Of a stretch of 64,000 nucleotides of DNA, positions 1-20,375 are shown piece after piece. This DNA is from Macrostomum lignano (taxonomy: Eukaryota): the NCBI GenBank assembly GCA_002269645.1, contig NIVC01002421.1, positions 1 to 64,000 of the forward strand. Reading direction: 5' to 3'. The translations under genes and the position numbers were made by a program. Numbering within the stretch: the first letter of the stretch is position 1; every line of letters starts with the position of its first letter. The notes beneath the pieces were generated by a model. The model worked only from the letters and a program-made list of their open reading frames with translations. It was not told the origin of the DNA and made no database searches.

Positions 1-454
1 CTAACTAAATTCATGTACAATTAGGGGACCGAGTCCCAGTTTGTTATTGCTCAAAACCCCCCGCCGTTGCTAACAAAGCGAAGACACCCCACCGGCGGCG
101 GGGAGGCCAAAAATGCTAATTGGTACAAATAGACGCTCATCTCAAACTGGAGCGGCGCTTCGTTTTTCCTGCGCAGTTTTTCGATCTTGAATTGCTCCAT
201 TTGAATTAGTTTCTGGATTATCCAGTTGACAGAAATCCGAGTCTCAAATCGATTATTTGCCTTAACTGTGACATAGAGCAAATTTTAGAGAGACTCCAAC
301 TCAGATTAGATACTAGGAGATCCCGTCAGTTTATACGGTCTCCTTTGACGGCCTGATAGGAGAGACTAAGAGCTGTAAGAACCTTAGACCGCTAGACATC
401 TATCTTAGGAAAGTGAGAACACGAACTCAAAGGCCCCAGAGGAAGACGCGTATA
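1..454 (+). mobile_element. Y-family LTR-like unit, 3' part (GC-box palindrome, TATA-like TACAAATA at 124, R/U5-like end); truncated by window start
   Basis: Near-identical to 10140-10596 and similar to 4236-4684 and 18350-18810; all four copies end at ...CGCGTATA. Confidence 0.65.
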
Positions 455-744
455 GCCCCAGAGAAAGACGCATATAGTACGCACATCATAATAGACACCA
501 ATTAATACTCTTCCCGTTAAAACGTCGTCAGCAACGTCTTTTACGATACCTATCAACATGCGAATTACCATGCCTCCCATTTCATTGCGCTGTACTCCCA
601 TACTTATTAAGCGACATGCGGATCTAACTATGTTATTAAAGCACAGTGAATTGACAAATTGGCAGGGCGATATGTACGATGAAGATATAATTATAATTAT
701 ATCTTATAAGGCGATATAATTATAATGCTCCTAAAATTGCAGTT

Positions 745-1329
745 ATGGAATGTATCGTCTGCTGCGAAGAGGACATCGAGCCATTCGTTTACTGTCATAA
801 CGGCCATCAATTTTGCTATCACTGCTGTACGACAGATGCGATCGATAAATTCCCGTTATGTCGAGCGCCAGCCACCCGGTGCCAAGTATGTGCCACGACA
901 CCTCAAATAAAACTATGCCACAATCAACATTGGGTGTGCCGCGAATGTGCAAACAATATCCGGCGTACCAACAGTCCAAATTGCATCACTTGTGCGACAC
1001 CCATCACGACGGAATTCTGGGACCAAACACGAGACGACCTGCCGACGATACAGCTAACTAAAGAAGCTATGGACCACATGACCGCACGGGCGCTAGCACT
1101 GACAATAAAAACATGGCCGATACCGTTCAACCGTCAGAAACACAGAGAGTATTTGTTCGACCTAATGCGCCATTGTGTCATACACCCGGACAACACCACA
1201 ACCGAGGAAATCTACCTTGACTTCCTCTATGCGACAGAATGCACGGAATACGTGGCAATACAACATCTGATATGGCCCATGGCACGCCCCACACAAAAAA
1301 CACGAGAACTGACACGCGACATATTCTAA
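745..1329 (+). CDS. Tandem double RING-finger (C3HC4, CxxGH-type) protein, putative E3 ligase
   Basis: CIVC..CHNGHQFCYHC..FPLC then CQVC..CHNQHWVCREC..CITC; paralogous over full length to 1669-2268; intronless. Confidence 0.75.
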   Translation: MECIVCCEEDIEPFVYCHNGHQFCYHCCTTDAIDKFPLCRAPATRCQVCATTPQIKLCHNQHWVCRECANNIRRTNSPNCITCATPITTEFWDQTRDDLPTIQLTKEAMDHMTARALALTIKTWPIPFNRQKHREYLFDLMRHCVIHPDNTTTEEIYLDFLYATECTEYVAIQHLIWPMARPTQKTRELTRDIF

Positions 1330-1668
1330 CTAACACAACAAATCGGACGCTCACAATTAAAACCTTAGTATACTAGGAACATAGCTCCATAAAATTTAAA
1401 TGCTTACACTTACGTCTTCTTCTAACATACCATCCTACTACCTGCCAACCCCGAACAATATTCGAGACCAACACAGGCCGGCCCAAGAAGAGAATGCGCT
1501 ATTTTTCACCAATTAAAACTTAGTGACTACAAGCCAATTAAAACGCGATACGTATCCATATATATATACACGCGAAATTCACTTACGATTTATGCCTTCA
1601 CACATCTTTCTGTAATTCCTAAGAGTTCCATCTTCCATTGTTTTGCTTTTGCCTCTATTTATATCATC

Positions 1669-2268
1669 ATGTCTGAGTGCCCTATTTGCCTTGATCCGGC
1701 CCACGCCATGGTCTCCACCTGCGCCTGGGGCCATATGGCCTGCCGTACCTGCGCCGCCAGGGAGGAACTCCAACATTGCTCCATATGTCGACGGGACAGA
1801 GTGTGGTGTGTCCTGTGTGGACGGCTACCGCAGGTGAAGTTGTGCTCCGACGGCCATTGGGTCTGCAACAGCTGCTTGCGCAGTCTGGCTTGTCGGGCTA
1901 TCGGCTACTGTGTTCAATTTGGTTGGAATTTTCTTTCGACCACCACTGCCATTACGGCCACGATCCCGTATGAGCCTGCTCTATGGCTCGATGCTGACTC
2001 TATCCCGCGACTGACTACGCCGGAATTGGCGCGCGCCATCAAGTCATGGCCCGTTACGATGGCCCAAGCCAGGGCCCGGGACGATATGCTCAGGATCGGC
2101 CGGGACGTACTACTAGATGCGACAATTACGACCGAGATGGAGGCCTACCTCGCCATCCTGAACCGCACCGAGTCCACTGCATATACTCCACTGCAGATCA
2201 TGTTTGGGCCTCTGGCGGCGTTGATAATACGGCTGAAATCCGTTCTTGACGACATTTTCATTGCCTAA
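1669..2268 (+). CDS. Tandem double RING-finger protein, paralog 2
   Basis: CPIC..CAWGHMACRTC..CSIC then CVLC..CSDGHWVCNSC; shares C-terminal motifs (IKxWP, TTExExYL) with 745-1329. Confidence 0.75.
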   Translation: MSECPICLDPAHAMVSTCAWGHMACRTCAAREELQHCSICRRDRVWCVLCGRLPQVKLCSDGHWVCNSCLRSLACRAIGYCVQFGWNFLSTTTAITATIPYEPALWLDADSIPRLTTPELARAIKSWPVTMAQARARDDMLRIGRDVLLDATITTEMEAYLAILNRTESTAYTPLQIMFGPLAALIIRLKSVLDDIFIA

Positions 2269-3075
2269 CTACCGCACTCGTTATGTACTGCTTCTATTCT
2301 GCGACGTATTGACTTCACTAATTATTGCTCTTGCTTATTCTTGTTTAGTGCCTCTTGCGTGTTCTGTACACTACCTTACTTAACCTCTACTATATCTACG
2401 ACTATATACTCATCACCACTTTTCATTGTTCTGTACGTTCTATACTTACTTGCCACTGCAATAAATGAAAACCTCTGTCCGCTTTTACTTAATTTCGATT
2501 GAAATTCGAGACGAATTTTTCGTAAAAAAGGGAGATACTGTAGAGATCTCCAAACACAGTAGCCTACTAAAAGTAGTAACATAAAATTATGAACACAAAT
2601 TTAAAAATAGCTATGTGTCATACTCTATTTTTAGTAATACCAGTCATATCACGCAAACAGCGAGTGACTATGCTATTGTTCGAAAAAACCGGTTCTCGAC
2701 ATCTATTTTTAGAACTTCCAAATATGGTAAATGTTAACCTGAATGTAACCCAAGTCTCACCCTTTTCTATTCAAAAACCCCACCTGTCAAATAATAAAAT
2801 TCCTTTCGTGAACTCATAAAAAACGGTTTTGAGGCTTCCCAGGCTTAAGTGTCTGAAAGTGGAAGTTTTCGGGTGACTGATCACCACCCGATCAAACTCT
2901 TCACCCGCACGTTCCGCCGCACCCGCTACCCCATGTACGCAGAGGATAGAACCAATGTACAGTAGTCCCACTAAGGAATACGATGGGCAGCTGAGAACAC
3001 ACGCCAAACCCCAGACGCGATAATCAATGAATACTCTCGCTTATTTCTTTCCAGCACACACTCCGCACAAAGAAG

Positions 3076-3390
3076 ATGGCCGCCTACACACCAGAAAAGG
3101 CTTACACCCGGCGACCTGGCCAGGCTTTTGTGGACGGAGACCTCCACCTTCGGAAGTGCGTCAAGAAAGACGCACAAACACAGGTCGCCGAGTACGATAT
3201 CGATGGCGGCCACTCCATGGCTAAACAAACGGCCGCCGACTATAACGACTGGGGGGTGATCCTGGCCCCAAGAAAGACTCCATGAGACGGGGGCCCGTAT
3301 GAGGCCGCCGTCACCATTAGGCCACGGCCCTCACCGCAGGGCTACCGCCTATATCTATGGAAGATAGGCGACCGCCCGGTCAAGGACTAA
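3076..3390 (+). pseudogene. DAQTQ-family cargo protein, copy with one nonsense codon (TGG>TGA at 3283-3285)
   Basis: Reading through the stop gives DGGPYEAAVTIRPRPSPQGYRLYLW, matching the intact copy 17364-17693 (WEGGPYKAPVTIRPWPTPQGYRQYLW). Confidence 0.75.
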
Positions 3391-3537
3391 TATCAATAGT
3401 ACTAAATGGCCTCGGCGCAACATATACAAAACAAACTATACGCTTGAAACTTTTGCTCGAAGAATACCCATCCTCTGACACAACCACTTATCTAGCACAT
3501 CCTCTTCTACCCCTAATGCAACGTTCACTACCTTTTG

Positions 3538-3670
3538 CAGATTTCTAACCTCTTATATTTGATGAAATACGCACCGGCAACGCGATTTAGTCCCAGCATA
3601 AAGAACCCAAATCCTTGTTCGCACAAGGATTTCGAAAAAAAGGGGGAATTATATTAGAGTTAGAAATCTG
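3538..3670. other. Conserved stem-loop module D (long outer stem plus inner 10-bp hairpin)
   Basis: CAGATTTCTAAC..TATA / TATA..GTTAGAAATCTG outer arms; inner AAATCCTTGT-TCGC-ACAAGGATTT. Confidence 0.7.
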
Positions 3671-4684
3671 AAGTTTTACCTTAAGTTAGTAGATAGATAG
3701 AAATTTATGAAAAGTCCAGGCGCAGCAAAGGGCGAGGCAGAAGAGCACAATGGTACCCATAGATAGCTATTAGAAGGGCAAACAGAAGCAGCAATAAGGC
3801 AATAAATCAAGACAAATAAGAAGGACCGATTCTAATTAAGCCCCTCCCATTCCAGTGAGCAGCAACACCCCGCCGCAGGAACAACGGCACTCAAACCGGC
3901 CGGAGAAGTAAATTAAGTAGCAGCCCGACTTAGGGAACAACGCAGCACGCGGCACGCAGCAGATTTCTGGCGCACCCAGAGGGAGGAAAATGTGCGGCCC
4001 ACCCACGGACTCCAATCCAACCTGAAGAGGCCGAAGAAGGCGAGATCAACCCGAAGTAGTTGACAACCGAGGGAGAGAGAGAGGGCTGTTTAATCATCCA
4101 TGGACAGAGTTAAGAGACGGAAAATTAAGCTCGTTTTATATAACCTTTCTATCCTAGATTTTATCCAACTCAACACATAGATTTGCGAAACCCCGAATAA
4201 TCTCCAACCTTCACACTTAGCAACCTACTAGAACTAACTAAATCCATGTACAACTAGGGGACTGAGTCCCAGATTGTTATTGCTTAAAACTCCCCGCCGT
4301 TGCTAACCTCGCGAGACACATCACCGGCGGCGGGGGGGGCCAAAAATGCTAATTGGTATAAATAGACGCCCATCTCAAACTGGACCGGCGCTTCGTTTTT
4401 CTTGCGCATTTTCGATCTCGAATTGCTCCCTTTGAATTAGTCTCTGGATTATCCAGTTGGCACAAATCTAAGTCTTTAATACAGTTATTTGTCTTAATTG
4501 TCGCGCAGAGCAAATCCTAGAAAGAGTCAAACTCAGCTTAGATACTAGGAGATCCCGTCAGTTTATACGGTTTTCTCCGACGGCCTGATTGAAGAAGTTA
4601 GAGCTATACAAACCTTAGACCGCAAGACATCTATCTTACGAAAGTGAGAACAAAAACTCAAAGGCCCCAGAGACAGCGCGTATA

Positions 4685-4995
4685 CCCTTTGCAGATTTTT
4701 AACTGCTTATATTTGATGAAATAGGAACTGGCACCACGCCTTAGTCACCGCCTAGAGGAACCAAATTCTTGTTAGCACAAGGATTTCAAAAAAGGGGCAA
4801 TCATATGAGTTAGAAATCTGAACTTTTGCCCTAAGTTAGAAGATAGCTATAAATTTATGAAATGCCCAGGCGCATTGAAGGGCGAGGCAGAAAAGAACAA
4901 TGGAACCCCTAGATAGCTATTAGAAGGGCAGACAGAAGCAGCTTTAAGATAAGTGATCAACTGTCAAGTCACTTTAAATATCCGAATCTAATAAA
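4685..4995 (+). mobile_element. Fragment of a further Y unit (stem-loop D 4692-4820 plus downstream block), fused to Gypsy RT by a deletion
   Basis: Homology to 3531-3800 and 9612-9756; breaks at CCGAATCTAATAAA into RT sequence. Confidence 0.65.
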
Positions 4996-7083
4996 AAGAA
5001 GTGGCGAAACACGAGCTACACATCAAGCCCAACATAGAGATAAAGCTTTACAAAAGATATCCCATCCCATACCAATTAATGGGAGAACTACAGAAAACCA
5101 TCGATAGGATGGAAGCCCAAGGGATAATAAAGAAAGCGGCAACTCCATACATCTCGCCAATCTTACTGGTAAAAAAGAAAGCAGAATCGCCCAATGCTAA
5201 CCCTGTTTACCGTCTCTGCGTCGACTTTAGGGACCTCATTATATTCTAGTGCCTGAAAGACAGTCCATGCCCAGAATCCCCGACCTGCTAGCTAAGCTCA
5301 AAGGCTCCATGTACTTCACCACGTTGGATATGGCCCAAGCATTCTTCCAAGTAGCCCTAGAGGAGGAAAGCCAGAAATACTGCGGCATCTAAACCCCGGA
5401 TGGACAAACCTATGTGTTCACTAGAGCACCCATGGGGTTACAATCTTCGCCTGCGGCGCTATCAAGGGCAGTCAGCATAATCTTACAGGGCATACATTGA
5501 GTCTCCACCTACGTGGACGACCTATTAGTGTTTAATGAGACCTTTGAAGACCACCTCAACACGATAAAAACACGCTATCAGCACTCACTAAGCACGGAAT
5601 GAAACTCAGTTGCTGAAATGCAAATTTGCCAAACCGACACAATCAAGCATCCAATACCATGCCTCCAGGCACTGAAGGACGCACAGAAGGAGGATCCATT
5701 CTGCCAGTACATCAGAGCTATGTGGAACGAGCAACCTGGCGGAGAAGATTTGGACTCAAAATAGAAGCGCCATATTGAACGGCACCTAACAGATCATGCT
5801 GAAATTCTGGGCATTATCCACAGAACGGCAGAAAAAACGCAGCAGATAGTACTGCCATTTAAATATCGCGACACAATTTGCTACTCACTGCACGCCCTAC
5901 CCTTGGCCGCACATCTAGATGTCAAGAAGACCTTGGAGAGGATCCGGCGACATTACTTCTGGATCTCCATGGTCCGAGATATACAAGCATTCTGCGACAA
6001 CTGTATGGACTGTGCCAAAAGCAAGTCCGGCAGGATGCATCAAGGCCTCATTCAGATGTCGGAGATACCACTAAAACCGATGGACAAACTGTCAGTGGAT
6101 CTGGTCGGCCCTATGACACCGGCGAGGATAAGGAACGAGTCGGTAACACATTTTTAACCGTTTCGTGCTGCTTCTCCAAGTTTGCCTTAGCGTTCCCAAT
6201 ACCGGACTTGAAAGCCGAAACCACGGCCGAAACACTCTTCCAAGTGTTCTGTACCTTCGGGATACCCGTAGAACTCTCAACGGATAACATCACCAATTTC
6301 ACGGCGACACTACTCACAGATGCCCTAAATATTCTAGGGATACAGCACATTCTAACGTCACCTTACAACCCTCGAGCAAACCATGTGGAACGCCTTCACT
6401 CCACTCTCCACAATATGCTACGACATTACACGGCGGAGAACCCTCACAATTGGCACCAATACCTACAAGCTATAATCCACGCTTAAAACACAGCCAAACA
6501 AGCGTCCTCTAAATACTCACCATTCGAGATAGTGTTCGCCCGGAAGCCACTAATGCCCACAGAATTAACAACACAACTGCAATTCGTACGATACGCAGAC
6601 GAACCCGCATACGCGGAACGAATGCAAGAGGCTATAACCCTAGCCAGAGAAATAGCCCGTCACCACCTACAAGAAGCTCAAAAGAAAAACACAACAAGGG
6701 CAAACAACAGAAGAGTTCCGACCACGATAACAGTAGGAAGCAGGATAATGCTCCAAAATCCAATGAGACAAGCAAAACATCAATCTAAATTTTCTGGACC
6801 ATACGAGGTGGTTAAATGTAACAGTGCCACTTCGGTGCTGATAAAAAAGACAGATGAACCACCGCAAACAGCCTTCCAGGTACATGTGGACAGGCTGAAA
6901 CCGGTGGCCTCACCAGAAGCGCAAGTCTTCCTCCCCGACCTCCGGCCGTGTGATCCCAACCGCCTGCAAAGACAGCAGAAACAGAAGTTCTCGATGGATG
7001 TCGGCATCCAAGTAGAAGATGGAGCGCCGGCGGACACGGCCAGGAAGAAATACAACCTAAGGAGCAAGACCCACCTTCCGTGA
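4996..7083 (+). pseudogene. Decayed Ty3/Gypsy pol: RT (RNase H deleted) plus integrase
   Basis: SPILLVKKK..YRLCVDFRDL, TLDMAQAFFQV, YVDD (~5510), HHCC zinc finger, DLVGP / STDN / VERLH DDE core, GPY motif, VHVDRLKP, C-terminal YNLR; several stops and frameshifts. Confidence 0.93.
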
Positions 7084-7259
7084 CAATTGATGTCATGGGA
7101 AGGGGGGGGGAGAGTACAAAGACCAAAAACATTCATTTTATACTCGTATATGTACTCAGTTGGTATGCGCTGCACTTAACAGTAGAAACACTCACTATTA
7201 ATTACCAATACATACCTGATTAAAATAATTAAAGCACTGACTTATATCACACACAACAG

Positions 7260-7398
7260 ATGTACGACGCTCAGCTTGACTATTTGGACGATGTCTATAT
7301 CGGCGAGGAGACTTCCCCGAATGGAGACGATCGTCAGACCGCTGTTTCAAGACCCGGAGATTCAAGATGAATGGTCGTCAAAGCAGTGTCATCAGTAG
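7260..7398 (+). pseudogene. Internally deleted remnant of the X cargo ORF P (HNH-like)
   Basis: MYDAQLDYLDDVYIGEETSP start and SSKQCH end match the two ends of 13553-14561. Confidence 0.7.
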
Positions 7399-7768
7399 GT
7401 AAGAAAACACCCATAAAACCCAACCAAATAATCCAAATTTAACAATTAAGCGGACAAATTCACGCTTCACCTGACAATTTATTTTTGATTATTCGTACAC
7501 AGTAGTAGTATAACGTAGTAGTGCTATCAAAGATGGACAGAAACACCAGAAAGTAGCACGCATATGGCTTGTAGTATAAAGTAACATTAGTTCGCACGCA
7601 TGATTCTGCGCATAATAAATCATAGCTTAGACCTGTAGCATACGGCAGTTTTAAAAAAGAAAAGTTAAATAGAACAAATACTAAAAATGCTTATATATTT
7701 CCACAAAAAAAATGTTTTCGTCAATCCTTTCGCATAATAGTTACTTAATTCACTGGCAGGTTCCCATA

Positions 7769-8008
7769 TTAAGCAGATAGGGGCCGATAGCGGTACCGGC
7801 AGCAAAACGCCACAATTAAAACGCAGACAACGAGCAGGAGAAATCCGCCTCCGCCTACTCCGCCCAGCACACCTCGGAGCGCTCGGAGCCCAGAATCCGT
7901 CGCTAGAGCTTGATGGGATAGCTCCCTCACGCGCTCCTCCACGGCCAATAAGCGCCGATCCATCCTTGAGAGTAAGCTAGACAATTGCTCCACAGCATGC
8001 TGCGACAT
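7769..8008 (-). CDS. 79-aa coiled-coil + C-terminal transmembrane microprotein (X cargo)
   Basis: ATG at 8008; heptad-like N-terminus, hydrophobic FLLLVVCVLIVAF, then CC-RYRYR; intact paralog at 14952-15191 with mostly synonymous changes. Confidence 0.8.
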   Translation of the reverse strand: MSQHAVEQLSSLLSRMDRRLLAVEERVRELSHQALATDSGLRALRGVLGGVGGGGFLLLVVCVLIVAFCCRYRYRPLSA

Positions 8009-8296
8009 AGTGCCAACGTCAATCCCGTAAAAGCGTAGACAGTATAAGCAGTCAAATTCTATATCCAACACTCGCCAGCGCCGGGGACTCCCTCTCAATT
8101 AAAACTTATATCAGTCCCAGTGGAGGGAACCCCCCTAATAAAAAATCGATCAGTCCGCGGACCCCAAAACCCCCCAGTAGGGGCAAGAGCGGTAAACAAC
8201 CTCAGCGAAGGCCCGTAAAACCCAACCGCGTACATTGTAGCTAAGGATGTACATTGCCAAATAAGAACCAATACAGTTAAAAATCATTCCAGCACA

Positions 8297-8620
8297 ATGG
8301 CTGACCACGGGTGGCGTGCCTATACAGCACTCGATGCTTATCAGAGGCGACCAGGCACCCGTTTTACTGACGTCAACATACATGGGCGGCCCTGTTACAA
8401 GGCAGACGCCCAAACCCAGGCGACTCCGGAAATTATTGATGGGGGACGCTTAGTGGCCGCTGGAACATCGGACCCCGAAGGGGGAGTCATTAGACTCCCC
8501 AGAAGAGAATGGCCTGGGGGCGACTACGTCCCCGCCCCAGACTACGAATGGCCAACGCTCCAGACGCACCGCATGTTCGTCTGGCGCAACCCCAACAAAG
8601 CACCCCCAAATAACAACTGA
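8297..8620 (+). CDS. DAQTQ-family cargo protein (107 aa), unknown function
   Basis: Intact ORF; four paralogs share YxRRPGxxFxDxxxHxxxCxKxDxQTQxxxxxxDGG; synonymous-biased divergence versus 15476-15805. Confidence 0.8.
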   Translation: MADHGWRAYTALDAYQRRPGTRFTDVNIHGRPCYKADAQTQATPEIIDGGRLVAAGTSDPEGGVIRLPRREWPGGDYVPAPDYEWPTLQTHRMFVWRNPNKAPPNNN

Positions 8621-8679
8621 TCGTGCTAACTTAAATTCTAAATAACCTACATTAAATCAAGATATTACGTGACAAATAT

Positions 8680-8797
8680 TAATTTCTAACCCTATATCGT
8701 TCATATTCTTGCGCTATTTCATTTCAGATTCAGGAGATTAATCCTCGTTGCACAAGGATTTCAAAAAAAGGGGGAATAATATAGGGATTAGAAATTA
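8680..8797. other. Stem-loop module D, X-family version
   Basis: TAATTTCTAACCCTATAT / ATATAGGGATTAGAAATTA outer arms; inner AATCCTCGT-TGC-ACAAGGATT. Confidence 0.7.
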
Positions 8798-9300
8798 TGA
8801 AAGTTGGGACAAATAAGAGTTCGCTAAAGGGCAAAGTAAGAAGCAAAAAAAAGCAAGGGGCGAAAGTTCAATTTAAAGATAAGACACCTAAGTGAGAGAA
8901 ATTAAAGAACGGCAAGAAAGTGAAACAAGCTATAGATAAGAAACTAACTCTGACTTTCCCCCAAGATTTCAGACTAAAACCAGATGATATCAAATCGGCC
9001 GAGGTACCAGGCTGAGCCAGTCGGCGCGGTGCCAGGAGAAGCAATACGACACAAAGCCCGACTGGCGGGCGAGATAAAGCAATGGTCAACAGGCCAAGGT
9101 CAGCGGTGACGAACGACCCCAGGGAATAAGAGGACGACTCACCGAGGGACGCACGAGGGGTCTGACGTACGAATCGACTCGAACGATGAACCCTGAACTG
9201 ACCTTTAACCATCGCCTGATGCGACCAATTAACCGATAGCAGATTATCTCTCTCGCCCCGTAGCAACGCGCTAATCTAATGTTGCTGCGTCTGTTTTGGA

Positions 9301-9360
9301 CACCCCGCCGTTGCTAATCAGCGGCGGGGTATGACGTGTATCAAATAATCTATAAAATAG
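9301..9360 (+). promoter_or_regulatory. Putative Pol II core promoter of X: inverted GC boxes, CRE-like TGACGT, TATA
   Basis: ACCCCGCCG-TTGCTAATCAG-CGGCGGGGT-ATGACGTG..TATAAAATAG; repeated at ~16530-16590 and ~16975-17035. Confidence 0.6.
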
Positions 9361-9611
9361 ACACGGCCTTGGCCCCGAAATGGGCAACGGAGAAAAGAGT
9401 CAGAGTTAAGACTGGAAGTCCTGTGCACTTCACAAAACCTTGAGTTTACTTAATCTTCAGCATTTTTGCCGTAGGCGCGAGTAGTAAGCAGCCTCTAGCG
9501 ATCTCTAGTTGTAAGCCCTCTTAGGCTTCAAGGACAGCGAAAGCAATAGAACAAAACCGCTAGACGACCAAGGAGAGAAGCATAACCGAAGCCCGAGAGA
9601 GGAGTCTTACA

Positions 9612-10596
9612 GAAATTTATGAAAAGCCCAGGCGCAGTGAAGGGCGAGGCAGAAGAGTACAATGGAACCCCTAGATAGCTATTAGAAAAGCAAACAGAAG
9701 CAGCTTTACTATAATTAATCAACTGTCAAGTCAATGTGAATAGCCGAATCTAATAAAGCCTCTTTCAATTCCAGTTAGTAGCGTCACCCCGCCGCAGGCA
9801 CAATGGCGACTAAACCGGCCGGGAAAAGCAAACTGAGCAGCGGCCTGACTTAGAGAACAACGCGGCACGCGGCATCTTCTGGCGCACCCTGAGGGAGAAA
9901 ACGTGAGGCCCACCTAGAGACTCCTACCCAACCCGAAGCTGCCCAAGAAGGCGAGATCAACCCCAAGCTGCCTGACAACCGAGAGAAATAGAGGACTGTT
10001 TAATCATTCATGGACAGAGTGTAGAGACGGAAAACTATGCACTTTTTCTATAATCTTTCTATCCCAAATTTTATCCAACTCAACACAGATTTGCGAAAGC
10101 CCGAATAATCTCTAACCTTCACACTTAGCAACCTATTAGAACTAGCTAAATTCATGTACAATTGGGGGACTGAGTCCCAGTTTGTTATTTCTCAAAACCC
10201 CCCGCCGTTGCTAACAACGCGAAGACACCCCACCGGCGGCGGGGGAGGCTAAAAATGCTAATTGGTATAAATAGACGCTCCTCTCAAACTGGAGCGGCGC
10301 TTCGGTTTTCCTGCGCAGTTTTTCGATCTTGAATTGCTCCATTTGAATTAGTTTCTGGATTATCCAGTTGACAGAAATCCGAGTCTCAAATCGATTATTT
10401 GCCTTAACTGTGACATAGAGCAAATCTTAGAGAGACTCCAACTCAGCTTAGATACTAGGAGATCCCGTCAGTTTATACGGTCTCCTCTGACGGCCTGATA
10501 GGAGAGACTAAGAGCTGTAAGAACCTTAGACCGCTAGACATCTATCTTAAGAAAGTGAGAACACGAACTCAAAGGCCCCAGAGAAAGACGCGTATA
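9612..10596 (+). mobile_element. Y-family unit, right part (TATA at 10266), left side interrupted by X1
   Basis: Begins mid-block GAAATTTATGAAAAG (cf. 3702, 4853) and ends CGCGTATA. Confidence 0.65.
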
Positions 10597-10965
10597 CTCG
10601 GGCTTGCTACACTTATTTGCTTGCCTCGATTCTTATTACGCAGCTGTACATCGGATTGAGTTTCTTTGGAGAGGTTAGTAGATGAAAAATGGTCTTTTCT
10701 TTCGTTCTTTGTGAATTTCAATGTGGGTAGAATAGTTCCATATTCTACAGATGGTTCGGTACCTTACCCATTGATTCGTATTCGTAATGAAAAAAACGGC
10801 TCTTGTTCTTGTCTTGCCTTATCTTGTCTTGCTACAGGCACTTGTTCCCCAGTGTCTAGAAGCGGGAATTTGAGAGTGATTGATCACCAGTCTTAATCTC
10901 TTCAGTAGTTGTTATTAACTGTGACCGTATAAATAGTGACCCTGTTATATTTCAACATAACATTT

Positions 10966-11529
10966 GTCTACGAGTTTTTCTATTCAAGGATTCAATTCCA
11001 TCGGTCGCTTGCTTCTGCCCGCGTGCTTGGTGGAGATACGGATAGTTTGATCCTGGCATTGGTTATGGCCAACCCGGAGACGAGTCCTCAGGAGACATTG
11101 TTTAAAGACTTGGTGGAGTGCGGTTTGTTAGATACTAGTAATTATCCACCTTCTCATCCACTTTATACAACAAAGTATAAAGGGAAGTTAATGGCCTGGA
11201 AAGATGAAGTTTGCGGTTGTACGCCGTTGGAGTTTGCATTTCTACGCCCGAAAAACTATTCAATGGTGTATGCAAAGGAAAGCCTCTGTCAGATTGTGCG
11301 TTGCAAGGGCGTGTCGAAGTCAATTGTAAGAGGTATGAAGCACAATGTATTTTTGGGTGCGTTGAAGGATCGAGTTTTGGGGCATGTAACGATGCGGACG
11401 ATTACTTCGCGACGACAGAAGATTTATATTCTTGAGCAGCGCAAGCAGGCGCTTAGCTTTTTCGACACGAAGCGAGCCTGGCTCGATCCCTACTCATCCC
11501 TCCCATTTGGTCATTGGCGGTTGACTTGA
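10966..11529 (+). pseudogene. C-terminal fragment of Maverick/Polinton (adintovirus-like) protein-primed DNA polymerase B
   Basis: YEFFY, GDTDSL (motif C), DTSNYPPSHPLY, KDE, EFAFLRPKNYS, KGV, LSFFDTKR, LPFGH; homology appears to stop upstream of ~10966. Confidence 0.85.
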
Positions 11530-11798
11530 CTTGTTCTCTCTGTCTCTATTTTCTGTCTGTTTATGCTTTTTCTGCTCACAATATATGCGCGCAATTATCG
11601 AATGTATATACAAGAATCTGCCTTTCTTTCTTTCTCTTCGTATTTTTTCGTTTTTCTAGGCCAATGATAGCAGTGCAGGGGATTAGTACTAGGCTTAGTT
11701 TTTTTGATTGGGACGAGGATTACGAGGGTAGTACCAGACTTATTTTAGAGGACGACGATCCTGCTAAGCATAAGATGAACTATGATCCCGCAGCCACG

Positions 11799-12281
11799 AT
11801 GAGCTCCGACGCTTGAACGACGGTCCCGCTGCGCATAGTGCTCACGGATGCCGGGGCAGTAATGCCTCGGCGAGCTACGGCCGGGTCGGTGGGCTATGAC
11901 CTAGCCACGTGCGAAGACCGCACTGTGGAGGCCTTTGACACAGCCATCATTTGCACCGGCCTCCGGGTGATGCTGCCGCTAGGCACCTATAGTCAGATAG
12001 CGAGCCGGTCCAGTTGGGCCAACCCAGGCCTCAATGTGCAGGGTGGCGTGGTTGACCCGGACTATACCGGGGAACTCCGCGTGATCCTGCACAACACGTC
12101 AGATGAGAAAGTTCATCTACTGTGTGCCACCAGCGTGGTTCAACTGATTCTGGAGCGCTGCGTCAGGCCCCCGGTAGAAGTCGGCCGAGCTCGCAAGGGC
12201 CAGCTGCCGGGGGTTTGGCACCGACAACCGGAGCCGGTGGCGGTTCGCGAGACGGGCGGCATGGGCAGCACTAACATCTGA
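11799..12281 (+). pseudogene. dut: Trimeric dUTPase with an in-frame TGA at 11814-11816
   Basis: All five motifs recognisable (VGYDL, SRSS, GVVDPDYTGEL, QLI, RETGGMGSTN); ATG 11799 is in frame with the downstream ORF. Confidence 0.9.
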
Positions 12282-12381
12282 TGCTGCTCGCGCCCGGAGC
12301 CCGTCGGTCGGTGGTGGGAATTGGTGGTGGTTTTTAATACAATATACTGCTCGTGGATTTAACCGCTGTGTGTATAAGCAA

Positions 12382-12725
12382 ATGCAGTTGGTTCTTTTAG
12401 TACAATTAAGTGGGGTGGGAACACAAGGCCAACAGAAGAAGAAGCGAGTGCGTTTACCATCTTTCAGGGGAGCTTCATTTGCCGGGGGTTACCAATTCTG
12501 CGGCCCGGGACACGATTGAGAGAACGTTTGGCGAGGGGCGATACTGGGAAGAATCGGCTCGATAAATTGTGTCTCTTACATGACCTGGCATACGAGAAGC
12601 ACTCGGACGTGGCAGAGCGTAAAAGGCCGATCAACAACTCGAAGCAAGAGCTCGAGAGATTGCTACGGATCCTACAACTAAGTGGGGGGGACGTTTGGCC
12701 GCGAAACTGGTGTCCCGTGTTTTCT
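12382..12725 (+). pseudogene. Parvovirus-type phospholipase A2 domain protein (Maverick/adintovirus PLA2-like), two frameshifts
   Basis: GYQFCGPG / TRLRERLARGDTGKNRLDKLCLLHDLAYEK / ADQQLEARAREIATD across three frames; shifts fall in short homopolymer runs. Confidence 0.8.
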
Positions 12726-13552
12726 AGCATTTTTCTAGCGAGCATGATTAGTGGTGGTGGCGCTGAGAATCTGTTTAAGCGCTGTTATAATCGTTTGCGT
12801 TCTTTCGCGATGAATTATCTGCGTATTAGATTGCGGTAATTTGCTTACTCGTTTTTAATGCGTATGGACTTGCGGCGAATTCAGTCAAATATACTTTGCA
12901 GAGATAAATGGCCAAGGCTAAGGAAGAATTGGACTTTGCATTCAATATTTCTTTTAGGAGAGAGCTAGTGTTGGTTAGTGTGTCGTATAAGATAACTACA
13001 CTATACATACACTATACTTACATCTATAACTACATTTATAACTATTTCATTTCAGACCCAGGAGAATAATCCTCGTTGCACAAGGATTTCAAAAAGGGAA
13101 TAATATAGGGATTAGAAATTAGGACAAGCCTGAACAAAATAAAAGGTTCGCTAAAGGGCAAAGTAAGAAGCTAAAACCAGTGGGCGAAAGTTCAATTTAG
13201 AGATAAGACACTTAAGTGAGAAATTAGAAGAACGGCAAGAAAGCAAAAAAAATCATAGATATGATATGAACTTAATTGTCACTTTCCCCCAAAATTTCAG
13301 ACCAAACGAGATTTCAAAATCGGCCGAGGTACCAGGCAGAGTCAGTCGGCGCAGTGCCAGGAGAATCGAGACGACATGTCACAGAAAGCGGGGGGAGAGT
13401 AGAAAGACTAAAAAACATTCATTTTCATATATATGTACTCAGTTGGTATGCGCTGCACTTTACAATATAAAATATTTACTGTTAAGTACGGCTCGTATCT
13501 ATACATACCCGATTAAAATAACTTAAGCACAGACTCATATCACACACAACAG

Positions 13553-14561
13553 ATGTACGACGCTCAGCTCGACCACTTGGATGATGTCTATATCGGCGAG
13601 GAGACTTCCCCCCGAATGGAGACGATCGTCAGACCGCTGTTTTAAGAACCGGAGATTCAAGATGAATGGTCCAAAAATAGTCGTTTGCAACAAAAATATC
13701 AGCGGTTGCGGCGCGAATGGAAATCAAGAGGGCCACACATCCCCTACGAGATGGGTGACAACACGAAGTGGATGGCTCGATCCGATGACACAACGTACGT
13801 GATACGATTTCACCAAGCTAGTACAACAGACAGTAATCTCCAGCCGGCCAGGTCGGTACAATGATGTAAAATTGTTTGACATCCACCAGGAAATGCTAGA
13901 AATTCCGAGAACGACCAATATGGTGACACATCTGACATGCCAGCGTATCTGCAACAACCCGAGGGACCTCCGATGGTTAAGCGCCGATTAAAACATACTA
14001 GAGCGAAACGCGACTCTCATTTTTGATTACACAAACCAAGATGCCTTCACAGGTCACCATTTCATAGTAATGACAAGGTGGCTCCGCTCACTCATAACGC
14101 ACCCCTGGGGACCTGCAGAAAACCACATGGAACGCCACGTCACTCTGAGAACCTACTTGATAAGCACGCTGCACTATCACGGGATCCATATTTCCCGACA
14201 AGAAATAAGAAAACCGGTAACGCTAGCTTACTCACCGGCCACGTTCCAGTGGCCACAACTGAAAACAGCACTGCTAGCCACCGCACACCCAACCCGGAAA
14301 CAGACGGGTAGTAGAGGCGAAGTTCCCGTAAGGACCGAAAGGGGAGGGTACAGATGGTGAGATTTGACACGATGGTCGAGCGGTTACTCGTGTTCGTGGA
14401 CCAATCGTATTGTCGTACTATCGCACCAAAGTGCTCCCCACAACCCAACACCGGACGAGCTAGCCCTGTGTTTAGGGTTGGTTCAAAAGGTGAAGGGAAA
14501 AATAGGTCTAACGCACAATAGAGAAATTAACAGGTATGATTCGTCAAAGCAGTGTCATTAG
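13553..14561 (+). pseudogene. Decayed ~335-codon cargo ORF P with HNH/His-Me-finger-like motif
   Basis: One frameshift and three stops; HQEMLEIP..VTHLTCQRICNNPRDLRWLSAD*N resembles HxxCxxxxCxNPxHLx7N; the first stop is CAA in the 7260 copy. Confidence 0.5.
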
Positions 14562-14951
14562 TAGGTAAGAAAACACCCATAAAATCCAACAAGAATAATT
14601 TCATACTTAACATTAGCGGACAAACCCATGCTTCAACTAACGATTTATTTATGCTTACAAACGTAGTACGCGTAGCAGCGCCAAAAAAACATCGATTAGA
14701 AATAAAATAAAATGCGTCATACACATAGCCTATAGTAGGTAGCAATACCGTCGTTGAATGATTACGCATGCCCACGCGCTCTTGTGCATAATAATTCTTA
14801 GCTGCAGACCCTTAACATGCTAAAGTATTTTACGGTTACATAAAACAATACAAAACTACCTATATACCGTTATACTAAAACAAAGCAGTTTGTGTCAATC
14901 ATTTTCGCAGAATACAGCAGTCACCTAATAACTTCCCAACGGGTGCCATCG

Positions 14952-15191
14952 TTAAGCCGATAGGGGACGATAGCGATACTTGCAGCAGAACACCGCAATT
15001 AGAACACATAAGATGAGCAGGAGAAATCCACCGCCGCTAACGCCGCCCAGCACGCCTCGCAGCGCCCGTAGCCCAGAGTCAGTAGCCAGAGCCTGATGGG
15101 ATAGCCCTTCCACGCGCTTCTCCAAGACCGATAGTCGCCGTTCCATCTCCGAAAGTAATTTAGACAGTTGTTCAATAGCATGCTGCGACAT
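14952..15191 (-). CDS. 79-aa coiled-coil + TM microprotein, copy 2
   Basis: Intact, same length as 7769-8008. Confidence 0.8.
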   Translation of the reverse strand: MSQHAIEQLSKLLSEMERRLSVLEKRVEGLSHQALATDSGLRALRGVLGGVSGGGFLLLILCVLIAVFCCKYRYRPLSA

Positions 15192-15475
15192 AGTGCCAAG
15201 CCAAAAAAGTTGCAGACAGAATGGAACGAGCTAATCCAAGATAGTTGACTCTCGCCAGCGCCGGGGATACTTTCACAGTAGAACTTATACTAGGCCTAGA
15301 GACGGCCACCTTAATAAAATCGATCGCCCCGCGGACCCCAAACCCCCCCCCCAGTAGGGGTAAGAGCGGTAAATAACCTCAGCGAAGGCCCATAAACCCA
15401 CCCGCGTACATTGAGCTAGCTAAGGATGTACACTGCCAAATAAGAACTAACACAGACAAAAATCATTCCAGCGCA

Positions 15476-15805
15476 ATGGCTGACCGCGAGTGGCGTCCCT
15501 ATACAGCACTCGATGCCTATCAGAGGCGACCGGGCACCCGTTTTAGGGACGTTAATATACATGGGCAGCCCTGCATAAAAGCAGATGAGCAAACGCAAGT
15601 TACACCGGACGACCTCGATGGCGGACGGTCTGTGGCCTCCGGAACCTCGGACCCTGAAGGAGGAGTCATCCGACTCCCCAGAAGGGAATGGCCAGGGGGC
15701 GACTACGTTTCCACCCCTGACAACTCATGGCCAACACTTCAAACTCACCGCCTGTTTGTCTGGCGTAAACCCAACTGGGCGCCCCCGGATGAGGAAAATG
15801 ACTAA
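15476..15805 (+). CDS. DAQTQ-family cargo protein (109 aa)
   Basis: Intact paralog of 8297-8620. Confidence 0.8.
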   Translation: MADREWRPYTALDAYQRRPGTRFRDVNIHGQPCIKADEQTQVTPDDLDGGRSVASGTSDPEGGVIRLPRREWPGGDYVSTPDNSWPTLQTHRLFVWRKPNWAPPDEEND

Positions 15806-15907
15806 ATGCGAGGCTGCAACTGCTAATTAACTAATTGACACAATTCACATCTCACTATCAATTATTACGTTTAATAATTAATTAATCATTTAATTAATGG
15901 CTGCACT

Positions 15908-16023
15908 TAATTTCTAACCATATATCGTTAAAATTCTTACGCCATTTCATTCCAGATTCAGGAGATTAATCCTCGTTGCACAAGGATTTCAAAAAAAGGG
16001 GGAATAATATAGGGATTAGAAAT
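15908..16023. other. Stem-loop module D, X-family version
   Basis: Homologous to 8680-8797. Confidence 0.65.
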
Positions 16024-17363
16024 CAGAATAATCGGGACAAAATAAAGGTTCACTAAAGGACAAAATAAGAAGCTAAAAGCAGGGGGGCGAAAGTTCAATT
16101 TAAAGATAAGACACCTAAGTGAGATAAATTAAAGAACGTCAAGAAAGCGAAATAAATCATAGATATGATAAGAATTTAATTGTAACTTTCCCCCAAGATT
16201 TTAGACCAAACCCGATGACATCAAGTCGGCCGAGGTACCAGGCAGAGCCAGTCGGCGCGGTGCCAGGAGAATCGATACGACATGATACCCCGACTGGCGG
16301 GCGAGATAGAGCAATGGTCAACAGGCCAAGTCAGCGGTGGCGTACGGCCAGGGAGCAAGAGGACGATTCACCGAGGGACGCACGAGGGGTCTGACGTGCG
16401 AATCGACTCGAATAATGAACTCTGAACTGACCTTTAACCATCGCCTGATGTGACAAACTAATAGATATCAAATTATCTCTCTCGCCCCGTAGCAACGCGC
16501 CAATCTAATGTTGCTGCGTCTGTTTTGGCACCCCGCCGTTGCTAATCAGCGGCGGGTATGACGTGTACCTAAAATTCTATAAAATAGACACGGCCTCGGC
16601 CCCGAAATGGGCACTCCGGGAAGATTTAAGCTTCAGAACTGGAAGTCTTGTGCACTTCGCCAATAAATCTAAAAGGACTCATATTTGTTCTTTGTGCTAA
16701 AGGCACGAGTCATAGTCAGCCAAGTAGCGATCTCCTTTGTAAGCTCTCTTAGGCTTCGAGGACAGTGGAAGCAATAGAACAAAACCACTAGACGACCAAG
16801 AAGGAGAGAAGCATAGCCGAAGACCTAAGAGAAGTCTTACACGACATGATACCCCGACTGGCGGGCGAGATAGAGCAATTGTCAACAGGCCAGGGTCAGC
16901 GGTGACAGCTATCAAATTATCTCTCTCGCCTCGTAGCAACGCACTAATCTAATGTTGCTGCATCTGCTTTGGCACCCCGCTGTTGCTAATCAGCGGCGGG
17001 GGATGACGTGTACCTAAAATTCTATAAAAATAGACACGGCCTCGGCCCCGAAATGAGCAACCTGAGAAGAATCCAAGGGACAGCAAGAGTTCCAGTGCAA
17101 TTCACGGAAATCCCAAGATTACTGTTCGTTATTTGTGCTACAGGCACGAGTCTTGGCCAACAAATTGCGATCTCTGTTGTAAGATCTTTTAGGCTCAAGA
17201 TCGAGTGAAAAGCTATATTGATCAAGAACAGGAATTAAAAGGTCAGACTTAGTCAAAAATAGTTAGAGCCTAAGAGAATTCTTACACTACTAAGGGATAT
17301 TTTGGGCAGAGAAAAACACGAGCCAGGTCGCCGAGCTTACGAGCTTAATTTTAGCGCATACAC

Positions 17364-17693
17364 ATGGCCGCTTACACCAGCGATAAAGTCTACGCCCGGC
17401 GACCTGGCCAAGCTTTTGTGGACGTGGATATCCATGTCTACAGGTGCGTCAAAAAAGACGCACAAACGCAGGTCACCGAGTGTGACATAGATGGTGGCCA
17501 TTCAGTGTCCACCCAAACCGCCGAGTCGGACAACGATTGGGGACCCGTGTTGCCTCTCACGAAGATCCCATGGGAGGGAGGCCCCTACAAGGCCCCCGTG
17601 ACCATCCGGCCGTGGCCCACGCCGCAGGGCTACCGCCAATATTTATGGGCCAAAGGTGCCCGCCCAGAGACCGAGGAAGGCGGCGATAATTAA
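17364..17693 (+). CDS. DAQTQ-family cargo protein (109 aa), Y type
   Basis: Intact ORF, paralog of 3076-3390. Confidence 0.8.
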   Translation: MAAYTSDKVYARRPGQAFVDVDIHVYRCVKKDAQTQVTECDIDGGHSVSTQTAESDNDWGPVLPLTKIPWEGGPYKAPVTIRPWPTPQGYRQYLWAKGARPETEEGGDN

Positions 17694-17814
17694 AGCGGCC
17701 CCTAGCTATAACTATGAATTATCTCTTTTTAACTAACTATTTTCCATTTTATCTATCTATATACCTCAGCCAGCATATCTTCCCTACCTCAATATAACGC
17801 TTAATTACCTTTTA

Positions 17815-17944
17815 CAGATTTCTAAGTCTTATATTTGATGACATACGCAACCGCAATGCGATTTTAGTCCAAGCATAGAGGACCCAAATCCTTGTTAGCA
17901 CAAGGATTTGAAAAAGGGGCAATCGTATAAGAGTTAGAAATCTG
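17815..17944. other. Stem-loop module D, Y-family version
   Basis: 18/19 complementary outer arms (17815-17833 / 17926-17944); perfect 10-bp inner stem 17886-17909. Confidence 0.75.
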
Positions 17945-20375
17945 AAGTTTATCTTAAGTTAGAAGAAGATAGTTAAGTCCCTTTCCATTCCAGTCAGTAG
18001 GGACAACCCGCCGCAGGAACAATGGCGATTAAACTGGCTGGGAGAAGCGGCCCAGCTTAAAGAACAACGCGGCACGCGGCATCTTCTGGCGCACCCTGAG
18101 GGAGAAAACGTGAGGCCCACCTACAGACTCCTATCCAACCTGAAGTGGCCCAAGAAGGCGAGATCAACCCCAAGCTGCCTGACAACCGAGAGAAACAGAG
18201 GACTGTTTAATCTTCAATGGACGGAGTTAAGAGACGGAAAATTAAGCTCTTTTCCTGTTATTTGTCTATCCCAAATTTTGTCCAATGCAACACATAGATT
18301 TCCAAAAAACCCGAATAATCTCTAACCTTCACACTTAGCAACCTACTAGAACTAACTCGATTCATGTACAACTAGGGGACTGAGTCCCAGATTTTTATTG
18401 CTTAAAACCCCCCGCCGTTGCTAACCACGCACGCGAAGACACCTCACCGGCGGCGGGAGACGCAAAAATGCTAATTGGTATAAAATAGACGCCCATCTCA
18501 AACTGGAGCGGCGCTTCGTTTTTCCTGCGCAGTTTCCGATCTTAAATTGCTCCATTTGAATTGGTCTCTGGACTGTTCCAGTTGGCACAAACCAAAGCCT
18601 TAAATCAATCATTTGTCTTAATTGTTGCGCAGAGCAAATACCAGAGAGAGTTACCCTCAGTCTAGATACTAGGAGATCCCGTCAGTTTATACGGTTCTTC
18701 TCTGACGGCTTGATAGGAGAGATTAAGAGCTGCACGAACCTTAGACCGCTAGACACCTATCTTAGAAAGTGAGAACATCAACTCAAAGGCCCCAGAGAAA
18801 AACGCGTATAAAGATTTTTCGGTCCCGAGCGGCGCTACCTCGGATCTTGGAAAAGACCTGTCTTCGAACAGCTGAACTTGTGTTTCACAGTTTCTTTGTG
18901 TTATCAGACGAACACGCGCGCCAACCGCTATCTCCGTTGTAATTTGCGAGTTAAGCTAGAACCGATAAGGAGGGTCTTAAAATGGGGGCAATTATAGAGG
19001 GCTCGGAAATTCACTAGCATAGGAAGTTCTTTCGAGACGCGTTTAAGCTGGACGAAGCAAAGAATTATCAGTATAGGCAGAGGAAAGACAAATAAGACAG
19101 ATAAGATGGTAGAAGGCCGAATGCGGGCAAACAACAGTGACCCATAGCAGCATATGACAAATTCACAGCAGCCCCCAAACCCAAATCTGGCAATCAATCC
19201 CGAAGGGCGTGGGAACCGAAGAGTGGACGCGCGATCCGATGTATGCGGAAATGCAGTGGAAAGACTCAAAAACTGACCTCCACCTCCCCCGCTCGATCGC
19301 TCGAACTCAACCAACGTAACCCGCAAGTTTAGCGTCAAAACCGTAAAAAGTGGTTTGTTTCGGCCCTAAGGCGCTTAACTTGTTTTACTCAGAGCTTGGC
19401 CTCGTAAAAATAACCGTTTTACTATTAAACACTATTCTGTGATTTATACGGTCATCGTATGTAGCAATAACAACTGCCTTTAGTTTAAGGCTAGTAATTT
19501 TTATACTTGGTTAATTCAAAATATATTACTCTACCAGAACAAAACGAATGGTCCTAATGCAAAGTTATTATCCATAAATCTATGAAATTAAAGACATTAA
19601 AATCAATCCACACAAATTGAAATGATGTTTTTTAATTGATAGCGCTAGTTGCTGTCAATGCCGAAGCATCAACGATAACCAGCTGTGCGTTTAAACTCAC
19701 CAAACAGAGCCGTAGAATTTAAAGAATTCCAGCCCGTCTAGCTCGTAAAAGCCATGGCGAGGGAGAGACGACAAGACTGTCGAGCAGCGCGTGTGCTGAT
19801 ATATTATAGAAAGGCCGCTTGTGCATGCACAGGGGTTGCTGGACACCCGGGCATGTGTGGGCAATCCAGATTGGCCGAGAGGGAGAGGGAGACAAGGGGA
19901 GAGAGAGAAGAGAGAGACTCAGTTTTCTGTACAGGCCCAAGGCTTCCGTTCTGGGTTTCAAGACCTTGTCAAGGCCGAAGAGCCTCGTTTCCGCGGCCCC
20001 TCTTCCGAGTGGGGGGGGGCTTGGGGTTGGTGTTGCGTCTGTTGGCTGATGGCTGAGTTCGTAAATGTGCACATGACTCCACCCTACGTTTTTCAATTCG
20101 TCTATTAGGGCAGAAAAGCTAGGACGGGTAAAAGATAGGACGTGCTTGAAATTGGTCTTCTGCTTTTCGTGGCGGACCCTGATAAGTGAAAATTCATACT
20201 TTTTTCGTGTGCTCAAGGTTCTAAGGAATTAGATTCGGCTTCGGGATAAGTCTGCTTCGAGCTAGAATGTTCATTTATCTGTCCAACCAAAACCAAACAA
20301 CATTTTTACTCCTGTATCTGTATCGGATGGCAATAGGATTACAGATGCTCTGCTCTGCCTTCGACTTCGATCATG

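Follow-up and report, generated by a model that had tools for sequence, protein, structure and literature searches.

Probable nested one-strand remains of env-carrying Ty3/gypsy families with accessory genes in a contig of Macrostomum lignano

The first 18.8 kb of contig NIVC01002421.1 of Macrostomum lignano form a patchwork of repeats, every one of them direct in a self-comparison, and the question is which elements made this locus and why they all point one way. The window (the whole stretch of DNA that was analysed, 64,000 nucleotides, C2421:1-64000 of the sampled genome G000, to whose contigs all C-numbers below refer) starts at the first base of its own contig. A first-pass annotation had read 1-18810 as a retroelement lineage of two families, X and Y, with exchangeable extra genes of viral type lying within the long terminal repeats (LTRs). 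The lineage with exchangeable extra genes is borne out, but neither the location in the LTR nor the viral source is. It is very probable that 1-18810 is a nested pile, on one strand, of the 3' ends of env-carrying Ty3/gypsy families X, Y and Z, together with one deleted Maverick, and that each family has accessory genes under selection between integrase and 3' LTR, including double-RING proteins that are likely ubiquitin ligases.

The Y repeat has at least 40 matches in the genome (40 of 40 scored, out of 154 candidates), and at 3 places pairs of copies lie 12.7-12.9 kb apart. Full-length Y elements are about 13.8 kb long, with LTRs of 1036-1038 bp, paired LTRs 99.9-100% identical and termini TATA..TATA (n = 3), and all three are flanked by 5-bp target duplications (TATCC, AAGTA and CCAAT); the same termini and 5-bp duplications are found in four of four solo Y LTRs. 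The order in all three paired-LTR regions is LTR, primer site, zinc-knuckle gag, env-like gene, protease, reverse transcriptase (RT), RNase H, integrase, accessory genes, polypurine tract and LTR. After the integrase come an open reading frame (ORF) of 260 aa named ORF-A, a membrane ORF of 86 aa in antisense orientation, the 105-aa DAQTQ gene and hairpin D, then the polypurine tract and the LTR; the 5' LTR is gene-free in the three full-length copies mapped, the accessory genes lying in the 3' part of the interior. Y has the primer site TGGTTCCCTGAC, which we take to match tRNA-Glu. Since 2458 codons are open in one Y copy and gag and env share a frame in another, Y would seem to encode a single polyprotein.

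The double-RING genes belong to a third family, Z. The second RING protein has at least 145 matches (150 scored, out of 199 candidates), and the dispersed ones sit in LTR-bounded Z elements of 11.3-11.5 kb with TG..CA ends, target duplications of 4 bp in three of the four copies examined, and the primer site TGGTGATCTCGC. The layout is like that of Y, with two or three double-RING genes per element: in the copy at C717 a single frame of 2480 aa holds zinc knuckle, env-like region, protease, RT, RNase H and integrase, and two RING genes follow. Y and Z are distant, their integrases being just 42% identical. At 745-2903 the window contains the 3' end of an element from a Z subfamily, whose relative in C272 has an integrase and three RING genes; the LTR of one Z subfamily measures 861 bp. 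Both Y and Z thus have the Ty3/gypsy domain order of protease, RT, RNase H and integrase downstream of gag (by Pfam and markers), and paired identical LTRs, primer site, polypurine tract and a target duplication of 4-6 bp are likewise as in Ty3/gypsy elements; from this anatomy it follows that they replicate by the ordinary Ty3/gypsy cycle. The usual TG..CA termini occur in Z only, as Y and W, a further family, have TATA..TATA and X has TATA..TACA.

At C669:1-22427, Z elements are joined head to tail with a common LTR (LTR-body-LTR-body-LTR), and C2447, with env matches 9.7 kb apart on one strand, may be similar. A Z copy at C352:528234-535107 with identical LTRs carries an internal deletion, keeping gag, half of env and both RING genes; its junction is a short shared motif and not a pair of splice sites.

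The X LTR is about 834 bp long (TATA..TACA), with 5-bp duplications at three of three solo copies, one with a mismatch. The LTRs of X and Y give no DNA-level alignment and have only short motifs in common. A broken pol at 4991-7083, absent from the first-pass annotation, as was the env of the full-length elements, runs into X-type ORF-A, membrane ORF, DAQTQ gene and LTR; because this pol, which leads into the X 3' region, has RT pieces 71-89% identical to Y, X is placed by sequence as a sister of Y. W is a further sister family, for which full copies exist, and W copies with near-identical RT differ in their cargo (ORF-A and membrane ORF at C4628, ORF-A and DAQTQ at C1674). The RT tree comprises 13 copies, all from G000.

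An env-like gene lies between gag and protease and matches PF24664 (Monjiviricetes_fusion) above the Pfam cut-off in Y (29.1 bits, E 3.4e-7) and in W (34). The env of Y and Z align at about 28-31%, and that of Y has a furin-type site and a membrane segment. A homolog search with Y env, restricted to near-length proteins, gave no match among 5519 candidates, and env had no match among PDB sequences. Across G000 the Y env has at least 105 matches (104 scored, 210 candidates); many of them stand in frames of 2400-2900 codons, which amounts to a large gag-env-pol radiation.

With these families, the pile can be read as follows.

1..454, + strand: 3' part of a Y LTR (the 3' LTR of a Y copy continuing upstream in C272), 96% against the full-length Y LTR, ending in CGCGTATA
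745..1329, + strand: RING_b, Z-family accessory gene, 194 aa, two RING-like fingers and a helical domain; Pfam Sina_RING; 60% against the second RING gene of the full-length Z at C717
1669..2268, + strand: RING_c, Z-family accessory gene, 199 aa; Sina_RING E 1.3e-9; model confidence (pLDDT) 92; 48-49% against the second RING gene of C583 and C262
2524..2903, + strand: polypurine tract and internally deleted Z-subfamily LTR (TGTAGAG..CTCTTCA), both LTR ends 83-89% against Z LTRs
2904..3651, + strand: Y1 internal 3' region, with DAQTQ gene at 3076-3390 (one internal stop), hairpin D and polypurine tract
3652..4684, + strand: Y1 LTR, complete, 84.7% against the full-length Y LTR over 1-1038
4685..4995, + strand: remnant of a further Y copy, with pre-tract DNA, tract and first 195 bp of LTR
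4991..7083, + strand: broken pol of X1, with RT piece, deletion and integrase; RT pieces 71-89% and integrase 76-80% aa identity against Y; contiguous with the start of X-type ORF-A
7099..8779, + strand: X1 internal 3' region, with ORF-A start, DAQTQ gene at 8297-8620, hairpin D and tract; 77-86% against the X2 region
7772..8008, - strand: X1 antisense single-pass membrane ORF, 79 aa
8780..9611, + strand: X1 LTR, complete (TATAGGG..CTTACA), 83% against the X2 LTR, with ends like those of solo X LTRs with 5-bp duplications
9612..10596, + strand: Y2 LTR, position 49 to end, 96.8% against full-length Y LTR 49-1038
10597..10958, + strand: remnant with Z LTR end (10836-10904), common to C273 and C1391 at 97-99%
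10959..12995, + strand: Maverick/Polinton piece, internally deleted, with PolB 3' end, dUTPase, frameshifted PLA2-like gene, protease 3' end and part of the terminal repeat, without either true end; 94-97% against C1668:27365-42967
13042..13378, + strand: X3 hairpin D, tract and first 275 bp of LTR
13379..16841, + strand: X2 3' half nested in the X3 LTR, with ORF-A 13553-14360 (frameshifted), DAQTQ gene 15476-15805 and LTR 16008-16841; CGACA on both flanks
14955..15191, - strand: X2 antisense single-pass membrane ORF, 79 aa
16842..17195, + strand: rest of the X3 LTR in two pieces (X LTR 272-334 and 458-750)
17343..18810, + strand: Y3 3' end, with DAQTQ gene 17364-17693, hairpin D, tract and LTR 17926-18810 with internal deletion

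The motifs listed in the first-pass annotation are real and confined to 1-19000 of the window: CCCCGCCGTTGCTAA occurs 6 times there, always on the + strand, the TATA-TAGAC motif 7 times and hairpin D 6 times, and none of the three occurs in 19001-64000. DAQTQ-type genes start at 3076, 8297, 15476 and 17364. X and Y do stand as two LTR families with short motifs in common, but the DAQTQ gene and hairpin D are not parts of their LTRs, as had been supposed, since D lies directly 5' of the polypurine tract and the LTR begins after it; the termini given above also replace the TG..CA bounds expected for X and Y. Among the genes ascribed to X1 and X2, the antisense membrane ORFs and DAQTQ hold, while Pfam, PHROGs and PDB sequences offer no HNH match for ORF-A. 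The RING pair, taken for Y cargo, is followed by the tract and LTR of Z.

The initial 295 bp of the Z-subfamily LTR at 2524-2903 are present in high copy (587 candidates); the segment 2539-2833 was considered as a short interspersed element and rejected, as it is the start of the Z LTR. X2 lies within the X3 LTR with CGACA on both sides, but its 5' part is gone; this single case, whose left junction is about 1 bp from the duplication, may be a one-ended integration; elsewhere in the pile, LTR ends abut the middles of relatives. A second version of the locus exists in C272, where 363001-369345 equals window 1-6342 at 99.9% and the sequence extends further upstream. Directly past the right edge of the pile there is a tandem repeat array (20370-21311), and at 26104-35896 three host gene pieces stand in tandem on the minus strand; the corresponding flank in C272 matches a KY-like Ig domain (PF23265).

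Sina_RING was matched by 16 of 19 RING proteins in Pfam, with the Cys/His columns invariant or near-invariant across the 19, and both the C3HC4 ligand pattern and the RING fold are present; the model (pLDDT 92) places residues 1-46 (the first finger, about 45 residues) on E3 RING domains at 1.4-2.5 A. The double-RING proteins are likely to act as ubiquitin ligases. A homolog search with the RING alignment, covering near-length proteins only, gave 1378 candidates, none at E 1e-5, and no whole-length relative outside G000.

Several results weigh against parts of this composition. The RING model has no Foldseek match at E 0.001, and fold comparison of its helical domain gave nothing clear (best Z 6.0). 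Three dispersed Z copies (C106, C1006 and C29) keep just a truncated RING gene between LTRs that are 99-100% identical, so the RING genes would be dispensable in cis. Each of the three Y copies is frameshifted, at differing places, and the Z env remains below the Pfam cut-off for PF24664 (19.8 bits). A search with the X 3' region and integrase found no full-length X, and the X interior is known from broken pieces alone.

As for why the copies share one direction, at least two piles, this locus among them, have nearly all copies on one strand. Intact LTR ends lie on one strand in 8 of 8 cases in the window, 7 of 7 in C272, 15 of 15 in C87, 5 of 5 in C273, 2 of 2 in C1391 and 9 of 11 in C1405, where the two exceptions are both LTRs of one young Y copy (LTRs 99.9%). 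Among 261 genome-wide positions, pairs 15-100 kb apart are on the same strand rather than opposite by 100 to 6 in 10 pile contigs and by 7 to 4 elsewhere; against this stands that the pile contigs were picked after inspection of the counts and are not all independent, since several represent the same locus in different versions. Because that one young Y in the C1405 pile is on the other strand, the bias likely arises after insertion. We considered that the piles might be without gag and env, and rejected this, as both are present in C87 and in C272:423-430 kb.

Two accounts of such a filter are about equally likely. The first, to which we give somewhat less than an even chance, is that the pile acts as a flamenco-like source of PIWI-interacting RNAs (piRNAs), in which one long transcript would run antisense to trapped env elements and selection would keep that strand. 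The content is mostly env-carrying gypsy, dense and on one strand as in flamenco-like loci, and X/Y and Z, which have no DNA likeness, share that strand, while the sole young Y insertion in a pile lies on the other. Gypsy elements drive the bias in flam-like clusters (PMC10643416), and unidirectional piRNA clusters of up to 94 kb are described in a free-living flatworm (PMC4604429). Versions of the locus differ by large insertions or deletions. Two sequencing runs, whose nature as RNA is a guess, have contigs that reach 29 of 30 bins and cross non-coding junctions, and the contigs of a third run reach 17 of 30; however, the runs were available as contigs only, with neither strand nor level given, and had been selected because they contain a part of the locus, and sense transcripts could come from LTR promoters. 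It also speaks against a piRNA source that unrelated elements in the piles are about 5 same-strand to 4 opposite (111 frames scanned) and that the C87 pile is almost a single subfamily. An antisense source by read-through from the downstream KY-like genes found no support, one run being without cover at 19344-20000.

The second account, which we would likewise put a little below evens, does without host function: elements would insert into or recombine with relatives, direct repeats would collapse, and close inverted copies would be unstable and lost. The head-to-tail Z copies at C669, X2 in an X LTR and Y1 in a Y 3' region fit this, as does C87, where the repeat pairs of 250 bp or more number 107 in direct and 0 in inverted orientation; same-family nesting is known in plants (PMC6911290). 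On the other side, the median identity of the C87 pairs is only 80%, insertion sites are scattered, with six of seven young Y insertions mapped (3 full-length, 4 solo) lying away from relatives, and the common strand of X/Y and Z is left unexplained. At C87:225900-280100 there is a second, unrelated one-strand pile without any long match to the others, nearly all of diverged Z3-type copies with RING genes; C2121, C1130 and C3033 have the same pattern in match lists and may be versions of it.

The accessory genes themselves are, by comparison of sequences, under purifying selection: among 41 natural pairs of cargo genes dN/dS was 0.07-0.40 in 33 and saturated in 8, as measured between subfamilies. 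One could suppose that the RING, DAQTQ and membrane genes of the pile are domesticated host genes, as several stay open beside broken pol, but near-identical genes lie inside young dispersed elements, many pile copies have stops, and the selection is that between subfamilies, which makes domestication quite improbable. Modules also seem to move between elements. The Z copy in C262 agrees with C717 at 96-100% from RT to the end of the first RING gene, matches C583 at 97-99% in the second RING gene, and resembles C717 once more in the LTR; by its sequence it is clearly a recombinant, with template switching as the probable cause.

The antisense membrane proteins (5 aligned) all begin with MS and have an N-terminal part of about 55 residues, a single membrane segment with a basic patch, and a C-terminus with Cys, basic residues and a Tyr-x-x-hydrophobic motif. 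A small antisense membrane ORF, very Cys-rich, also follows the integrase of a distant env-carrying family at C247:287807-288058. The searches gave no assignable family for ORF-A or DAQTQ, and Atlas returned no usable match for either. A DAQTQ homolog search among near-length proteins produced 1 candidate and none at E 0.001; a profile search of the alignment against 1.84 billion representatives gave 5 weak matches, and among the 4 inspected one was a chimeric gene model with a DAQTQ-like piece and three were unrelated repeats. The DAQTQ structure model has a pLDDT of 37, from which no fold can be read.

It remains to place the PolB, dUTPase and PLA2 genes. Mavericks/Polintons are DNA transposons, and the features of that family served for comparison. 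The dUTPase at 11862 matches PF00692 (E 9e-22), and the PolB and PLA2 pieces have 92-97% DNA identity to genes of a full Maverick. Segment 10959-12995 aligns with C1668:27365-42967 in three blocks of 94-97% with a 6.5-kb gap, and ends 162 bp before the end of that element, which has 1.6-kb inverted repeats, AGTAGT ends, PolB, a chromodomain integrase, dUTPase, and PLA2-like and pX-like genes. PolB, integrase and long terminal inverted repeats together identify the C1668 copy as a Maverick/Polinton; a 6-bp target duplication is not evident at its ends. In contigs of two runs position 10960 is followed by 19643, so the block is missing from certain versions of the locus; it is a passenger and not LTR cargo. 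A second full Maverick with dUTPase and PLA2-like genes, and with a deoxynucleoside kinase match (PF01712), is nested in the pile at C272:384103-399951 on the opposite strand.

That an LTR lineage captured viral-type genes (RING, PolB, dUTPase, PLA2) into its terminal repeat and amplified them, as first proposed, is therefore very improbable on this evidence. The Maverick piece does abut X pre-tract DNA at about 13000, and the two versions of the locus have the same junction, but solo and 5' LTRs are gene-free, the RING genes are those of Z, and the Maverick piece, whose ends are those of deletions, has among the scored candidates no dispersed copy within LTR bounds. Of the recurrence that had been proposed as a check, the RING genes do recur in LTR-bounded copies with target duplications, although of Z, whereas, among 40 scored of 252 candidates, the PolB-dUTPase-PLA2 block is found in Maverick context and joined to X only here and in C272, the other version of the locus. 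The alternative of a decayed Maverick repeatedly hit by LTRs accounts for about 2 kb of the 18.8 kb and not for the remainder, and database searches found a viral source for none of the cargo genes. That the pile is an assembly artefact of reads joined via repeated LTRs is barely credible, for all that the window starts at the first contig base and overlapping versions differ, as the LTR-end junctions run into diverged sequence, the copies differ by 3-24%, and contigs of other runs bridge 2903, 4684, 4995, 7376 and 17199-17343.

Taken together, the mechanism may be as follows. Env would be cut from one polyprotein and the particles could pass between cells; the accessory genes might aid the element against its host, with RING proteins tagging host proteins for ubiquitination and the antisense protein placed in a membrane; modules would be swapped by template switching between co-packaged RNAs; and the pile may have grown as insertions followed one another and DNA between direct repeats was lost, while a post-insertion filter removed opposite-strand copies. 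A more ambitious reading, tentative and in our judgement rather doubtful, is that of a retrovirus-host arms race outside insects, in which env gypsy elements carry exchangeable double-RING ligase arrays and an antisense membrane protein, and the host catches the 3' ends of these elements in one-strand piRNA loci of flamenco type, the window being perhaps one edge of such a locus. Env retrotransposons of invertebrates are usually drawn with gag, pol and env only, and these families add selected, exchangeable accessory genes, like complex retroviruses. The double-RING genes are a concrete and assayable candidate for element-encoded counter-defence, and if the piles do yield antisense piRNAs, the flamenco strategy extends beyond insects.

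The gag-env-pol layout is already known, while for the accessory genes we found no report in the accessible literature. Chary and Hayashi (PMC13524379) described gag-env-pol Ty3/gypsy errantiviruses with an env of herpes simplex virus gB type from Platyhelminthes, Nematoda and Bryozoa, which our families resemble in gene order, class III-type env and multiple copies. One of their flatworm elements has a primer-site 12-mer complementary to TGGTGATCTCGC of Z and an LTR called at 864 bp, against 861 bp in the Z subfamily; because of this matching 12-mer and close LTR length, Z or a near relative is probably catalogued there already, the two being set beside each other by primer site and LTR length and not by sequence. 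The X/Y primer site appears in 0 of 9 flatworm rows, 8 of which list none, and the main text has no match for 'RING', 'accessory' or 'target site'.

A further comparison is with the giant planarian gypsy element Burro/GYPSM1 (Arkhipova and Yushenova, PMC6431247), which has an in-frame env like mononegavirus fusion proteins between gag and pol, as in Z (2480-aa frame) and, by inference, in Y, and ubiquitination/apoptosis domains including a RING-type AIR1 motif. Burro exceeds 30 kb and holds its extra domains in a polyprotein of 4873 aa, whereas X, Y and Z are elements of 11-14 kb with small separate genes 3' of the integrase; BIR, MATH, BCL2 and ankyrin domains, in which Burro differs, have no Pfam match in Z (11.3 kb) or Y (13.8 kb). 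RING or ubiquitin-ligase accessory genes in LTR elements were found in no title or abstract start in the literature searched, which excluded subscription journals and most supplements, and the main text of PMC12801592 has 0 matches for RING. In bdelloid rotifers, LTR elements carry a family-specific ORF3 after pol that is gained and lost between lineages (Rodriguez et al., PMC5408684); theirs is a GDSL esterase, a DEDDy exonuclease, or a coiled-coil or transmembrane protein, with 0 matches for 'RING' in that text, and in our families the cargo stands besides env.

The antisense membrane protein recalls the sORF2/FAST-like proteins of the MDG1 group (PMC11952523), being likewise short and single-pass, with a basic patch that follows its membrane segment. 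It differs in being antisense, where the 105 published candidates are all sense, in lacking the MG myristoylation start, and in an N-terminal part of about 55 residues against an ectodomain of about 30, and it occurs in an element that already has env. The piles, finally, resemble in DNA content flamenco and the flam-like clusters of Drosophila (van Lopik et al., PMC10643416), being long loci that contain env-gypsy fragments on one strand, with the bias weak or absent for other elements.

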